Source: an uncultured Planctomycetia bacterium (GTDB lineage Bacteria; Omnitrophota; Gorgyraeia; JABMRG01). Taken from it: a stretch of DNA of 45,410 nt. Position 1 is the stretch's first letter. Each line of letters begins with the position of its first letter. The stretch spans positions 1 through 45,410 of the forward strand of contig CAZGAS010000003.1 in NCBI GenBank assembly GCA_964523875.1, given 5' to 3'. Shown in pieces: positions 12,791 through 29,474 of the stretch. Made by a program: the position numbers and the translations under genes. A model generated the notes under the pieces. It saw only the letters and a program-made list of their open reading frames with translations, was not told the DNA's origin and did no database searches.

Positions 12791-13978
12791 ATGAAAAGTA
12801 TAAGAGGCGGTATTACAGCGCCGAGAGGTTTTTTTCAGGCAGGTATATATTGCGGAATAAAAAAGAAGGCCCTGGATCTCGCGCTTATTCTATCTGAAGT
12901 ACCGGCAGCGGCATGCGGCTTGTTTACATCGAATAGTTTTAAAGCAGCCCCTGTAGTGTTAAGCAAGAAGTACCTGGATAAGAAGAAGCACAGGGCTGTT
13001 ATTATAAATTCAGGAAACGCGAATTGTCTCACTGGTAAGCCTGGTATTGCTGACGCTATTGCAATTTCCGACCAGCTCAGTTCTTTGATAGGATGTAGCA
13101 AGGAAGAGGTCTTGGCCTGCTCAACAGGGATTATCGGAAAGAGGCTCCCAATCAGCAGGATTAAGAGATCTCTGCCAACACTTATATCTTCGCTCCATAG
13201 AGCGCCTTCTAAAAGCGCGGCACAGGCTATAATAACAACAGACACATTTTTAAAGGAGGCCGCGTATAGTGTACAGGTAGGCCAAAGCAGTATATGCCTG
13301 GCAGGTATTGCCAAAGGCGCCGGGATGATAGCGCCTAATATGGCTACAATGCTCGCGATTCTAACAACAGACGCCAGGTTAGAAAAAAGAGTACTCAGGA
13401 AGGCCCTCAAGGAAGCTGTTGACGCGTCTTTTAATTCTATAACCATAGATGGAGATATGAGTACCAATGATACGGTTATTCTTCTGGCAAATGGTTTATC
13501 AGGAGTGGAGATATCCGAATCCAGCAGGACTTACAAAAAATTCGTAGAGGCGCTTAAAGCTCTATGCCTTGACCTGGCAAAGATGATTATAAGAGATGGA
13601 GAAGGCGCGACAAAGTTTATAGAAGTAGAGGTTGTTCACGCTAAAAACACCTGCCTGGCCAGGGAAATGGGCTTAAAGGTAGCGAATTCCCCCCTCTTTA
13701 AAACCATGTGTTATGGAAATAATCCAAACTTTGGAAGGATAGCTGCCGCGTGTGGGGCTATAAGCAGGCCTGTAGATCCGGCCAAGGTGGATATATATCT
13801 TAATGGAAGAAAAGCAGTGGATAAGGGTGTTGCTGTTACTGACAAGCTGCCAAGCGCTATCTTCAAGAGTAAAGAGATAAAGATTACTATTGACCTGAAT
13901 TCAGGCAAGGCGCGCGCAAAGCTATATACATCTGATCTTAGCCCCGAGTATATAAAGATTAACGCTGCCTATTGTTAA
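12791..13978 (+). CDS. argJ: Glutamate N-acetyltransferase / ornithine acetyltransferase
   Basis: NSGNANC, STGIIG, KGAGMIAPNMATML autocleavage site, DMSTND, DGEGATK. Confidence 0.96.
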   Translation: MKSIRGGITAPRGFFQAGIYCGIKKKALDLALILSEVPAAACGLFTSNSFKAAPVVLSKKYLDKKKHRAVIINSGNANCLTGKPGIADAIAISDQLSSLIGCSKEEVLACSTGIIGKRLPISRIKRSLPTLISSLHRAPSKSAAQAIITTDTFLKEAAYSVQVGQSSICLAGIAKGAGMIAPNMATMLAILTTDARLEKRVLRKALKEAVDASFNSITIDGDMSTNDTVILLANGLSGVEISESSRTYKKFVEALKALCLDLAKMIIRDGEGATKFIEVEVVHAKNTCLAREMGLKVANSPLFKTMCYGNNPNFGRIAAACGAISRPVDPAKVDIYLNGRKAVDKGVAVTDKLPSAIFKSKEIKITIDLNSGKARAKLYTSDLSPEYIKINAAYC

Positions 13979-13980
13979 TT

Positions 13981-14136
13981 GTCACGCGTTATGCGCCTGC
14001 CTGCTGGTAGGCAGGTATCGCGTAAAATATTTAAACGCACAACCCCGTAAAGCTCCTTCGGAGCAACGGGGCAGGCGCACAACCCCGTAAAGCTCCTTCG
14101 GAGCAACGGGGCAGGCGCACAACGCAATACGAGATA
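13981..14136. repeat. Inverted heptamer arrays interrupted by three GGCAGG-ended hairpins, including an exact 40-bp tandem duplication
   Basis: GTCACGC GTTATGC G[CCTGCCTGCTGGTAGGCAGG]TATCGC ... (CGCACAA-CCCCGTAAAGCTCCTTCGGAGCAACGGGGCAGG)x2 at 14036-14115, then CGCACAA CGCAATA CGAGATA. Confidence 0.9.
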
Positions 14137-14975
14137 TGAGAGAGCAGATACTAAAAGATTCGCAAAAATATATAGAGCAGTTTAAGGAAAAGGTCTTTGT
14201 TATCAAGTATGGCGGTAGCATGTTGGATGATAAGGTGCTTTCGGATTCCGTTCTTGATGATATAACATCTTTTCATAATTACGCGATAAAGATAGTCTTT
14301 GTTCATGGAGGTGGCGGCGCGATAAGCAGATTAATGCAGCAGAAAGGTAAAGAGTCCAGATTTGTTGATGGTTTAAGAATTACTGATAGAGAGACAGTAA
14401 AGATAGTAGATGAAGCGCTTACATCTGTTAATGAGGGTTTTGTCCAGAGGATAGGCTCAAGGGGAGTTCTGGCGGAGCCCATATTAAGCAGCAGGAGCCT
14501 TACGATAAAGGCAAAGAAGAGGCCAGGTACTATCTCTGAAGATTTTTTAGGAGATATAGATTCAATAGCCACTAGTTATATAGAGGATGCGTTATCAAGG
14601 AAGGCTATTCCTGTTATATCGCCTGTCGCACAAGGCAGTGATAATATGCCTTATAATATAAATGCTGATATCGCGGCAGCAGCGATTGCCTCAAAGCTAT
14701 GCGCGGAAAAATTGATATTATTAACAAATGTGAAAGGCGTTATGAGGGATAAGCTTGATGAAGGCAGCCTTATTTCACATATTAGTGAAGTAGAAGCGCT
14801 TGAACTTATTCAGAACAATATTATAGAAGGCGGCATGATACCAAAGGTAAGAGCAGGTATAGACGCGTTGAATAAAGGTGTAAAAAAGGTTCATATAATA
14901 AGCGGAAAGATACCCCATTCACTCTTGTTAGAGGTCTTTACTAATGAAGGTATCGGAACTGAGATTGTGAGGTAG
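14136..14975 (+). CDS. argB: Acetylglutamate kinase
   Basis: VIKYGG, VHGGG, GLRITD, NINAD, GGMIPKV, HSLLLEVFT.EGIGT. Confidence 0.95.
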   Translation: MREQILKDSQKYIEQFKEKVFVIKYGGSMLDDKVLSDSVLDDITSFHNYAIKIVFVHGGGGAISRLMQQKGKESRFVDGLRITDRETVKIVDEALTSVNEGFVQRIGSRGVLAEPILSSRSLTIKAKKRPGTISEDFLGDIDSIATSYIEDALSRKAIPVISPVAQGSDNMPYNINADIAAAAIASKLCAEKLILLTNVKGVMRDKLDEGSLISHISEVEALELIQNNIIEGGMIPKVRAGIDALNKGVKKVHIISGKIPHSLLLEVFTNEGIGTEIVR

Positions 14976-16167: not shown

Positions 16168-17084
16168 AGAAAGATCTTATATCAATAAAAGACCTGTCAA
16201 TAGATGAGATTAATAATATTCTTGAGCTTGCTCAAGTGTTAAAATCAGACCCATCCGCTTATTATGAAAAATTAAACGGACAGTCTCTTGGTCTTATATT
16301 TCAGAAACCGTCTAACAGGACAAGGGTATCTTTTGATGTCGGCATGTATCAGCTAGGTGGACATACTGTTTATCTCGGGTCTGATGATATAAAACTTGGC
16401 GTAAGGGAGGCAACAAAGGATATCGCGCATACATTATCAAGATACCTTGATATTATTGTTGCCAGAACTTTTTTTCATAAGGAGGTGCTTGATCTTGCTG
16501 ATAATGCTACTATACCGGTCATAAATGGCTTAAGTGACCTGTTGCACCCGTGCCAGGGGTTAGCGGATCTCTTTACTATAAAAGAGAAATTTTCTAAACT
16601 GGATGGCCTCACATTAGCGTTTATTGGGGATGGGAATAATGTTCTCCACTCACTCTTATACGCTACCTCAAAAACAGGAATCAATATTAGGATAGCCTCA
16701 CCAAAAGGCTATGAGCCTGATAAGAATATACTTGCCCAGGCAAAAGAGATTGCTAAAGATGTTGGTTCAACTGTAGAGGTTGTTGACGGCAAAGATGAGG
16801 CAGCAACTGGCGCTGATATATTATACACAGATGTATGGGTATCGATGGGGCAGGAATCTGACAGGAAGAAAAGATTAGAGGATTTTCATGACTTTAGGCT
16901 TGATGCAGAGCTTCTTGCTAAGGCAAGGCCTGAGTCTGTTGTAATGCATTGCCTGCCTGCCCACAGGGGCGAAGAGGTAACAGGCGAGGTAATAGATGGG
17001 CCTCATTCTATAGTATTTGACCAGGCTGAAAACAGGCTCCATATCCAAAAAGCAATATTACTTAGATTACTAAAAAAGGATTAA
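16164..17084 (+). CDS. argF: Ornithine carbamoyltransferase
   Basis: KPSNRTR (STRTR variant), HPCQ, GDGNN, TDVWVSMG, HCLP, QAENR. Confidence 0.95.
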   Translation: MKKDLISIKDLSIDEINNILELAQVLKSDPSAYYEKLNGQSLGLIFQKPSNRTRVSFDVGMYQLGGHTVYLGSDDIKLGVREATKDIAHTLSRYLDIIVARTFFHKEVLDLADNATIPVINGLSDLLHPCQGLADLFTIKEKFSKLDGLTLAFIGDGNNVLHSLLYATSKTGINIRIASPKGYEPDKNILAQAKEIAKDVGSTVEVVDGKDEAATGADILYTDVWVSMGQESDRKKRLEDFHDFRLDAELLAKARPESVVMHCLPAHRGEEVTGEVIDGPHSIVFDQAENRLHIQKAILLRLLKKD

Positions 17085-17172
17085 GGATTAAGTTTTAAGT
17101 ATTAAGCTCTTAATCCTTAGAGCTCGCTTTGATGCAAATAGATGGCGAGCGTCTTAATTCTTAATACTAAAT
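17081..17172. repeat. Inverted heptamer arrays (TTAAGTA family) with an inserted GCTCGC hairpin
   Basis: TTAAGGA TTAAGTT TTAAGTA TTAAGC / TCTTAAT CCTTAGA [GCTCGC...GCGAGC G, 17122-17151] TCTTAAT TCTTAAT ACTAAAT. Confidence 0.85.
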
Positions 17173-17185
17173 AAGGGAGTTTTAG

Positions 17186-18399: not shown

Positions 18400-18510
18400 G
18401 TATTGCGTATTGCGTGGTGCGTATCGCGCATAATGAAAATAATATATCTATTAATACAGCTCAAGGCAAATAACGCAATACGATATATACAATACGACAT
18501 ACAAAATACG
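18400..18510. repeat. Inverted heptamer arrays (GTATTGC / ACGCAAT) around a ~45-nt AT-rich spacer
   Basis: GTATTGC GTATTGC GTGGTGC GTATCGC (18400-18427) ... ACGCAAT ACGATAT ATACAAT ACGACAT ACAAAAT ACG (18473-18510). Confidence 0.85.
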
Positions 18511-25741: not shown

Positions 25742-26576
25742 AAGTTTAAGCGCGATCACTTCCGCTGTAAAGGTGTTTCGAAAGAGTAAAAATAAGATAG
25801 GCTTTGTTCCTACGATGGGAGCTTTCCATGAAGGCCACATTTCGCTTATCAGAAGAGCTAAGAAAGAAAACAACAAAGTAGTAGTGAGCGTATTTGTAAA
25901 TCCTATACAGTTTGGGCCCAATGAGGATTATAGGAAATATCCCAGAGATATCAGCAGGGATAAAGAGCTGGCAGAGAAGGCTGGCTGCGATATTTTATTT
26001 TATCCATCCGCGGGGTCAATGTATCCTAAAGGTTTTAATACCCATGTTGAACCTGAAGGCCTCTCAGCTCTTATGTGCGGCAAGTTACGGCCCGGCCATT
26101 TCAAGGGTGTCGCGACTATTTGCGCGAAATTGTTTAATATTGTAACTCCGGATACAGCGTATTTTGGCCAGAAAGATTACCAGCAGGCTCTTATTATAAA
26201 AAACATGGTTAAGGATCTTAATATGGATATCAGGATTAAGATACTGCCTATCGTCAGAGAGATATCCGGCCTTGCTTTGAGTTCACGCAATAGATATTTA
26301 ACTCCGGCGGAGAGAGAAGACGCAAGGCTGCTTTACAGGGTCTTAAAAAAAGCAAGAAGTATAATAAGGCAAGGAGAGCAGGATTCATCTAAGCTGCGGT
26401 CGATAATAGACAATATATTAAAGAAGCCCGGTATTAAGATAGAGTATATAAGTATAGTTGATCCTGATACCCTTGAGGAGAAGAAGATGATTGATTCAAG
26501 TTTCTTGGTGGCGTTGGCAGTCAAGATTGGCAGGACAAGGCTTATTGATAATATGATGATAAAGATCAAGAATTAA
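25728..26576 (+). CDS. panC: Pantoate--beta-alanine ligase
   Basis: VPTMGAFHEGH, FVNPIQF, RPGHFKGV, FGQKDYQQ, ALSSRN, RLIDN. Confidence 0.97.
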   Translation: MRLIRSLSAITSAVKVFRKSKNKIGFVPTMGAFHEGHISLIRRAKKENNKVVVSVFVNPIQFGPNEDYRKYPRDISRDKELAEKAGCDILFYPSAGSMYPKGFNTHVEPEGLSALMCGKLRPGHFKGVATICAKLFNIVTPDTAYFGQKDYQQALIIKNMVKDLNMDIRIKILPIVREISGLALSSRNRYLTPAEREDARLLYRVLKKARSIIRQGEQDSSKLRSIIDNILKKPGIKIEYISIVDPDTLEEKKMIDSSFLVALAVKIGRTRLIDNMMIKIKN

Positions 26577-26645
26577 GTATTAAGTTGTAAGTATTAAATT
26601 TTGTATTTTTTACTTAATCCTTAATACTTAATGCTTAATACTTTA
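26566..26645. repeat. Inverted heptamer arrays (TTAAGTA / TACTTAA)
   Basis: TCAAGAA TTAAGTA TTAAGTT GTAAGTA TTAAATT ... TACTTAA TCCTTAA TACTTAA TGCTTAA TACTTTA. Confidence 0.88.
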
Positions 26646-29026: not shown

Positions 29027-29350
29027 ATGGCAACAAAAGTATTAAAATGTAAAATTAAAAGAGAAAAAGGTTTTCTTTATTATTTGGATAAAAAAGGAAA
29101 TGTTTCAAAGGCAACGATGGCTCGTGGTAAGAAGAAAGGCGGCAGCCCTAAGGTTGTTGTTAAAGCAGGTATTATTAGGGAAAAGGGGTATCTTTATTTT
29201 ATAGATAAGCAGGGTGATGTTGCAAAGGCAACGATGGCACGTGGTAAGAAAAAGAAGAAGGTCGCCAAGAAGAAGGTAGTAAAGAAAAAGGTAGCAAAGA
29301 AAAAAGCCAAGAAGAAGGTAACGAAGAAGAAAGCCAAGAAGAAGAAATAG
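29027..29350 (+). CDS. Highly basic protein: two tandem 39-aa repeats plus an H1-like KKKVA tail; putative nucleoid-associated protein
   Basis: REKGFLYYLDKKGNVSKATMARGKKK and REKGYLYFIDKQGDVAKATMARGKKK repeats; poly-Lys tail; strong SD. Confidence 0.8.
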   Translation: MATKVLKCKIKREKGFLYYLDKKGNVSKATMARGKKKGGSPKVVVKAGIIREKGYLYFIDKQGDVAKATMARGKKKKKVAKKKVVKKKVAKKKAKKKVTKKKAKKKK

Positions 29351-29390
29351 CATATAACGGCTAAACCTTTTACTAAAAAAGGAGGGAAAC

Positions 29391-29474
29391 ATGGCAGCAA
29401 AGAAAAAGGCAAAGAAAAAGGTAGCGAAGAAAAAGGTAGCGAAGAAAAAGGTAGCAAAGAAAAAGAAGAAATAA
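29391..29474 (+). CDS. 27-aa lysine-rich microprotein MAAKKKAKKKVAKKKVAKKKVAKKKKK (not in the ORF track)
   Basis: SD GGAGG 5 nt before ATG 29391; TAA at 29472-29474; same VAKKK unit as the tail of the upstream gene. Confidence 0.72.
   Translation: MAAKKKAKKKVAKKKVAKKKVAKKKKK

Follow-up and report, generated by a model that had tools for sequence, protein, structure and literature searches.

Short repeats that sit inside other short repeats are reportedly known from cyanobacteria, where Elhai and colleagues are said to have described in 2008 small dispersed repeats (SDRs) nested in other short repeats and in heptamer (STRR) arrays; we know of no transposase for the SDRs. The Rickettsia palindromic elements (RPEs), which Ogata and colleagues reportedly presented in 2000, are said to be selfish sequences of about 100-150 bp that stand in frame in protein genes and are translated at tolerated positions. 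The mark of REP elements is a palindrome headed on its 5' side by a conserved tetranucleotide, GTAG or CGTC.

According to the accessible part of the study by Bertels and Rainey (2011, PMC3116915), REP and REPIN elements are mobilised by RAYT (Y1/HUH) transposases. The SDRs, with a length of 21-27 nt, are cited for Nostoc punctiforme and its relatives in sections of PMC3116915, PMC2884548 and PMC5861425. In excerpts of the work of MacGregor (2015, PMC4679880), TAACTGA intergenic heptamer direct repeats have been reported from Beggiatoaceae, Cyanobacteria and Bacteroidetes, with arrays placed just 5' of start codons that rarely have Shine-Dalgarno sites, and with some others inside ORFs. In the present study, we analysed a window of 45,410 nt (the whole stretch of DNA, contig C3:1-45410 of its genome), in which the spacer between argJ and argB holds GC hairpins within heptamer arrays.

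Results

The source genome (G000) comprises 1,407,485 bases in 110 contigs with 41.0% G+C, and its completeness by marker genes is 95.85%. It was compared with three congeners (G001, G002 and G003), with a genome of another genus of the same family (G008) and with further genomes where stated. The working names H1 and H2 are used for a 20-nt near-palindrome and a 33-nt hairpin. The features of the argJ-argB region are given below, the heptamer units being read from the sequence and the loop from sequence and fold.

12791-13978, plus strand: argJ-like ORF from the ORF list, matching PF01960 (ArgJ, E 1.3e-138) and stopping just 5' of the spacer element
13981-13995, plus strand: opening section of the left arm with the antisense heptamers GTCACGC GTTATGC G (GTCACGCGTTATGCG), the reverse complement of CGCAATA-type units
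13996-14015, no strand: H1, CCTGCC..GGCAGG (CCTGCCTGCTGGTAGGCAGG), inside the left arm at a G/TAT junction, which is the A/C junction of CGCAATA on the opposite strand
14016-14035, plus strand: end of the left arm (TATCGC G), then the loop, whose AT-rich sequence is TAAAATATTTAAA
14036-14042, plus strand: right arm unit 1, CGCACAA
14043-14075, plus strand: H2 copy a, 33 nt, a hairpin with a bulge (CCCCGT..ACGGGG) and CAGG on its 3' side
14076-14082, plus strand: right arm unit 2, CGCACAA
14083-14115, plus strand: H2 copy b, identical to copy a
14116-14135, plus strand: right arm units 3-5, CGCACAA CGCAATA CGAGAT(A), reaching into the start codon
14136-14975, plus strand: argB-like ORF (amino-acid kinase), matching PF00696 (E 5e-42) and consistent with ArgB, with orthologs in 10 of the 12 genomes of the family

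The spacer of 157 bp is a gene-less hairpin armed with heptamers, in which an antisense CGCAATA-type array (arm 13981-14029) and a sense array (arm 14036-14135) enclose an AT-rich loop; the letters between TATCGC and the first CGCACAA are GTAAAATATTTAAA. As the initial annotation had described, the 20-nt palindrome and the two identical 33-nt hairpins are present, and taking them out restores the heptamer arrays. The fold of the whole spacer has a free energy of -76.7 kcal/mol (z -6.7), and none of 200 shuffles was equally stable. Folded as single strands of DNA, H2 has a free energy of -8.5 kcal/mol (z -3.0) and H1 one of -7.0 (z -2.9). Tandem Repeats Finder reported 14036-14123 as 2.2 copies of period 40 with 100% matches and a score of 176. 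With up to 3 mismatches allowed, H2 occurs twice and the H1 20-mer once in the window, and neither was matched in 100 shuffles. No Rfam family was matched, the sole hit being a chance lncRNA at E 0.28. A Shine-Dalgarno-like GGAGG is absent 5' of the argB start in G000, G001, G002, G003 and G008, and at this start (window 14116-14138 and its orthologs) C/A-rich heptamers abut the ATG directly.

Further arrays were seen in the window at 18400-18428 with 18476-18510, at 26568-26597 with 26611-26643, at 17076-17106 with 17152-17173 and at 1723-1750. Several of them form inverted pairs (GTATTGC with CAATACG; AAGTATT with TACTTAA), and they are probably more gene-less elements of the arm-loop-arm kind. 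The overlapping tandem repeats of 12-42 nt at 29251-29465 are AAG/AAA-rich, probably represent a lysine-rich coding repeat and are unrelated to the hairpins.

Heptamer arrays of this type are widespread. Of 81 genomes of the class, 45 hold CGCAATA double units with at most 1 mismatch, the maximum being 106 matches in one genome, and the reversed control was at or near zero in most genomes, its highest count being 10 matches (G020). In the source genome, the one genome inspected for this feature, all three PF05635 (23S_rRNA_IVP) genes are flanked by inverted heptamer arrays, and hence we regard the argJ-argB spacer as a gene-less member of the same arm-loop-arm design. It is like the heptamer-armed hairpins of these genes in its inverted arms and loop, but it holds no IVP gene, and the GC hairpins inside its arms make a second tier. 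We found no literature linking IVP genes with heptamer arms, and a search of main texts with CGCAATA heptamer words returned no related work.

A profile search for H2 (nhmmer, 11 seeds) gave 12 copies at nine loci of G000 at E values of 1.8e-7 or lower, the next match being at E 0.8. With up to 3 mismatches, H2 was present in four of 41 genomes (11 copies in G000, 4 in G001, 3 in G002 and 5 in G008) and the reversed control gave no match. The three carriers among the 40 genomes beyond G000 all belong to one family, being two of the three congeners and G008; at the same threshold H2 is absent from the congener G003 and from all 29 genomes of other families. An exact scan with a 23-nt H2 core found three other MAG species only among public genome contigs, and in metagenomes eight independent contigs with loci and structure as in G000/G002, including the murD-ftsW pairs. 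A full-length master element did not appear: every H2 5'-half in G000 was itself an H2 copy, and the scans of genome and metagenome contigs with the 23-nt core returned only loci of populations like G000, G001, G002 and G008.

All 25 distinct H2 copies that were collected lie between heptamer units, which bears out the proposal of a dispersed hairpin family tied to the arrays. The preceding base is A in 24 of the 25 and the next base is C in 23, mostly as CGC, the exceptions being one copy (C64) after G and two before T. The flanking units are CGCAATA, CGCACAA or CGCATCA-like, and in G008 of CACCGAA, CGCCGAA or TACCGAC type. The orientation of H2 is fixed relative to the array, and by reading of the loci it is sense with respect to the host or downstream gene at eight of the nine G000 loci, many copies being placed just 5' of start codons. 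Mean column identity over the 25 copies is 96%, the 33-mer is identical across two genera, and the CCTG/CAGG tag is found in all copies.

Among the 25 copies of H2, of which 18 are distinct, 91.9% of stem cells pair, a value also reached by 312 of 500 shuffles. The changes comprise one double change, ten single-side changes that are all wobble-compatible on this strand, and 16 unpaired cells out of 198; over the 25 copies no covariation beyond shuffles was detected, and an H2 structure under selection was rejected on this ground. The copies look like decaying copies of a master sequence and not like a conserved functional RNA.

In comparison of orthologous sites, we found the same arrays with and without hairpins. 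The argJ-argB spacer of G001 has the same inverted arrays without H1 and H2: its left arm consists of four antisense units without insert (GTCATGC GTCGTGC GTATTGA GCATCGC) and its right arm of five sense units (CGCATCA CGCATCA CGCAATA CGATATA CGAATT(A)), as against five sense units and two H2 in G000. An AT-rich centre as in the window was found at G001 loci as GTACAATCTTTAA, which is the argJ-argB centre, and GTAAAAAATTTAAA. In G002 the arrays of this spacer are built from a different heptamer type and are free of hairpins, in G008 they are of CCGAA type with one H2 (2 mismatches), and in G003 the spacer has only about 20 nt without arrays.

In the pyrK-like gene (PF10418), a loop of four heptamer units plus 2 nt is found in nine of 11 orthologs, with varying unit sequence; in G004 and G011 the loop is not visibly heptameric. 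Four units without a hairpin are present in G002, G003, G006, G009 and G010, while H2 follows unit 1 in G000 and unit 2 in G008, a 21-nt GGCAGG hairpin follows unit 1 in G001, and G005 has a longer insert. The phosphoglucomutase (PGM) of G008 reads CGCACAA CACACAA CGCACAA CGCAATA CGA without a hairpin, and that of G000 has the same four units with H2 after units 1 and 3. In NAD(P)H-hydrate dehydratase (Nnr), the four units are uninterrupted in G001, G003 and G005; an H2 after unit 3 is common to G000 and G002, and G008 carries a 21-nt H1-like hairpin after unit 1. Upstream of rplI, four sense units without H2 in G000 stand against four with H2 after unit 2 in G001.

The number of heptamer units is thus equal with and without the hairpin at all five sites (argJ-argB, pyrK-like, PGM, Nnr and rplI upstream), a constancy that is partly forced by the reading frame within genes, the two intergenic comparisons (argJ-argB and rplI upstream) being exempt. 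The insert hence comprises precisely 33 nt (or 21 nt), without duplication of a heptamer. The filled and empty states in sister genomes support the view of the initial annotation that the hairpins are secondary insertions, in constant phase, into pre-existing arrays. Its further suggestion, that CGCACAA is a target-site duplication of 7 nt, was rejected: besides the equal unit counts, the flanks differ at every copy outside the window pair, and a 40-bp tandem duplication alone would yield the identical flanking units of that pair. G000 has the sites at Nnr and murD in common with G002, and those at pyrK and argJ-argB in common with G008, a pattern that fits no single tree, so that several gains or losses are needed. 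In the radical-SAM-like gene at C3:46337, just past the window, G000 has the array only and G002 has H2 together with a 39-nt GGCAGG-ended insert; the unit counts differ there.

Within genes, the hairpins do not interrupt the reading frame. Five of the 12 H2 copies of G000 lie in four ORFs and are read through in frame (pyrK-like, PGM twice, an epimerase and Nnr), and two more lengthen the murD ORF at its 3' end. H2 reads as PVKLLRSNGAG or PRKAPSEQRGR according to the frame, the third frame having a TAA. The nested inserts seen within genes measure 33, 21 and 39 nt, all multiples of 3, as selection would require. Ten of 60 strict heptamer arrays have an ORF reading through them, and codon inspection shows CGCAATA to be stop-free in all six frames.

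In-frame arrays inside long ORFs were also seen in G000 at C3:46337-46372, C14:9828-9860, C39:12137-12168, C69:1861-1888 and C2:55707-55738, in hosts that by sequence reading are radical-SAM-like, RnfC-like, a DegT-like aminotransferase, a 903-aa protein and threonine-synthase-like. These arrays are of CGCAATA type except for one of CCGAAAA type, and their peptides are RNTQYAI-like. Across G000-G011, the loops of the pyrK-like gene, PGM and Nnr have four units in most genomes and differ in the unit (CGCAATA, ACCGAAC, AGCTACA, CAAGCCA or AACTAMC), which suggests a genome-wide concerted change of heptamer "dialects".

Other GGCAGG-ended hairpins occupy the same position. H1-type palindromes were found at the same unit boundary, on the opposite strand, in the window, at C1:57324 and C6:29480 of G000 and at G001 loci L004 and L008, and one G001 copy of H1 itself holds a further insert. 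The initial annotation had proposed to determine the genome-wide fraction of GGCAGG hairpins inside arrays; compact hairpins with this end have array-like flanks in 10 of 30 cases in G000, as against 5.1% of 200,000 random positions, under a crude flank criterion that misses two obvious members and admits one doubtful. A loose regular-expression scan for interrupted arrays gave 1340 matches, with 1342-1458 in shuffled genomes, and was discarded.

Other repeat families with different internal hairpins were seen in G000 at C51:5377 and 5940 (flanking a greA-like ORF), C51:957, C70:5360 and C61:5614. They have the 3' end GTACGGGGCAGGC in common with H2, which hints at a common terminal signature. 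In addition, H1-type palindromes were observed outside arrays at C3:51395-51414 (past the window), C18:5944-5963, C2:54691, C41:1454 and C63:935 of G000; two of these array-free palindromes stand in a common context, ..GTTTGCATTC[H1]TCTAAGTTG.., and may belong to another repeat family.

As a possible source of mobility, we considered the Y1 transposases. Eleven of the family's 12 genomes have matches to Y1_Tnp (PF01797), among them the H2-less G003. The 1.4-Mb G000 has five of them, at C103:1276-1602, C10:995-1339, C33:1827-2162, C61:4532-4861 and C71:4582-4899, and most stand between inverted palindromes of the GGGACAG type, as one would expect for RAYT genes accompanied by REPs of their own. 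The ORF with the C61 match, which is interrupted by a run of N, has an H2-like hairpin on its 3' side. Neither H1 nor H2 borders any of the 20 Y1 genes inspected (5 in G000 and 15 in G001, G002, G003 and G008); their flanks carry GGGACAG-type palindromes or nothing relevant. The initial annotation had proposed a search for a co-occurring nuclease or transposase. Y1/RAYT-like genes do occur, but with these other palindromes at their flanks and their presence in G003 they show no link to H1 and H2.

Discussion

In the present study, we observed H2 nested in heptamer arrays at a fixed junction and in one orientation, at orthologous sites that are filled in one genome and empty in another, with an unchanged number of units and independently of the heptamer type. 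We consider it likely, with a probability of about two in three, that the GGCAGG-ended hairpins are very small non-autonomous mobile repeats inserted in spacer arms at unit boundaries without heptamer duplication. Such mobile hairpins would range from H1 with 20 nt and H2 with 33 nt to relatives of 16-39 nt. A copy would be placed exactly at the unit boundary (...A/hairpin/CGC...), in one orientation with respect to the array, with no heptamer duplicated. By analogy with HUH/Y1 enzymes, we favour a mechanism in which the hairpin enters as a single strand, in a strand-specific and sequence-targeted manner and with no target-site duplication. The initial annotation took the family to be active; polymorphism inside a population was not observed, and current activity would be a conjecture. 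Since the arrays occupy tolerant places, namely operon spacers and surface loops of enzymes, they may act as safe landing pads, in which inserts of 21, 33 or 39 nt would survive in frame inside genes.

Spread without transposition would be possible if arrays exchanged sequence by homology, either by gene conversion or template switching through the flanking heptamers or by copying of whole composites of arms and hairpins. Repeated units flank every copy and could prime such events. Furthermore, the composite elements at the non-orthologous argJ-argB spacer of G000 and rplI upstream region of G001 align over arms, loop, H1 and H2, and some spread as a whole composite may therefore have taken place. 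The copies of a pair also have species-specific changes in common, as in concerted evolution (GGCAGA CGCACGA in both copies of G002; GGCAGG CACAC in both copies of murD-ftsW in G000). However, near-identical H2 copies stand in arrays of different heptamer types (G000/G001 versus G008), where only 2-5 of 7 flanking bases are alike, and the filled and empty sites of pyrK-like, PGM and Nnr differ by a clean 33 or 21 nt with neighbouring units that were not converted to the donor. Homology of 7-14 imperfect bases is short for RecA-type conversion. Conversion is a serious rival, but as the general explanation it is unlikely in our judgement. A functional role in cis, with H2 serving in RNA or DNA as a hairpin that a protein binds or a nuclease processes, and with selection rather than selfish spread maintaining it, appears very improbable. 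The identity of the 33-mer in two genera, the sense orientation at eight of nine G000 loci with many copies just upstream of start codons, and the wobble compatibility of ten out of ten single-side stem changes would agree with a function. Against it stand the lack of covariation beyond shuffles with 16 of 198 cells unpaired, the missing match to any Rfam family, the translation of H2 in two different frames inside enzymes, and its presence or absence at orthologous sites of close relatives, G003 having no H2 and an argJ-argB spacer of only about 20 nt.

The identical pair of the window was weighed separately. In this pair both H2 copies and all three flanking units are identical, and it probably arose by a recent slippage duplication of 40 bp between CGCACAA units, or otherwise by two insertions at adjacent junctions. 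The initial annotation had taken the identity of the copies as a sign of a recent event, which agrees with such a slippage, while two transposition events are not needed for the identical flanks. The public runs X1-X4 contain 83-97% of the words sampled from the locus. Contigs of all four public runs break in the repeat (stopping at 14063 and restarting at 14085 or 14102) and none spans both H2, as would be expected if the duplication were an assembly artefact and the real locus had one copy or another number. We give this explanation hardly any weight: a 52-nt unitig of run X1 covers 14054-14105, that is, the H2-CGCACAA-H2 junction, which is unique in the genome, with 0 differences, X1 being possibly the source sample and so a different assembler and not independent reads. 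The depth of this unitig, 11.7 as against 3.9 and 6.6 for its flanks, is a crude figure, and it would agree better with a copy number above two than below it. In addition, direct H2 pairs of period 40 whose copies have diverged recur at murD-ftsW (G000, G002 and four metagenome contigs) and at lspA-lgt (G008); PGM of G000 has a direct pair of period 47.

A bolder form of the mobile-repeat reading, which we put forward tentatively and hold to be rather doubtful, is that a dedicated putative enzyme would read the A/CGC boundary and the GGCAGG end and paste single-stranded hairpins of 16-39 nt without duplication. The arrays would then be IVP-type arms, widespread in the class, that serve as safe harbours in loops of essential enzymes, and IVP element, arrays and hairpins together would make up a parasitic system with three tiers. 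If this were true, the hairpins would be among the smallest site-specific mobile DNAs. The heptamer junction and the 33-mer provide a defined substrate for assays of candidate enzymes. Moreover, nested hairpins explain part of the variation in length among the housekeeping proteins of these bacteria, whose genomes are small.

In comparison with known systems, H2 shares with REP and REPIN elements an imperfect palindrome of 20-40 nt, a conserved tetranucleotide beside the stem (CAGG at the 3' side, CCTG on the opposite strand) and the absence of target-site duplication, and RAYT-like genes are present in G000. However, its tag is CCTG/CAGG and not GTAG/CGTC, its double loci are direct repeats of period 40 or 47 in four of four cases and not inverted doublets as in REPINs, no inspected Y1 gene is flanked by H1 or H2, and H2 is inserted in heptamer arrays and genes. 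H2 differs from MITEs, which derive from DDE transposases, in that it shows no target-site duplication, with an equal unit count at five of five sites. The absent duplication, the fixed junction and the sense orientation at eight of nine loci recall non-autonomous elements of the IS200/IS605 (HUH) type, but H2 is a single hairpin and does not have separate left and right ends, and no cognate TnpA emerged from the Y1 genes inspected. Like the RPEs, H2 is palindromic and occurs in frame within protein genes; we regard the likeness as no more than an analogy, since the H2-type inserts measure 21-39 nt and enter a pre-existing array of four units, whereas RPEs are not known to lie in tandem heptamers and come from a different phylum. 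The arrays resemble those of TAACTGA, of which the consulted sections of PMC4679880 describe tandem heptamers before start codons and some arrays in ORFs, but no nested hairpins or inverted arm-loop-arm elements. The TAACTGA heptamer contains forward-strand stop codons, in contrast to CGCAATA.

The closest likeness is to the SDR/STRR design: H2 is a dispersed hairpin repeat of 20-35 nt with near-identical copies at unrelated loci, and it has a fixed position in another short repeat. The likeness is one of description only, as the lineage is non-cyanobacterial, H2 was found in one MAG family only, and the GGCAGG-ended sequences are presumably unrelated; furthermore, five of the 12 H2 copies are translated in frame in housekeeping enzymes. 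Since the same two-tier design is reportedly found in cyanobacteria, the value of the present case is tempered. The movement of repeats of 20-35 nt is poorly understood; they are much too short to code for anything and lack terminal inverted repeats and target duplications. This lineage offers a well-defined case with one fixed landing junction, clean filled and empty sites, several hairpin types with one 3' end and translated copies in essential enzymes. By analogy with the cyanobacterial repeats, it is suggested that the hairpins in heptamer arrays represent a well-resolved case of an SDR-in-STRR-like design and not a wholly new kind of element.
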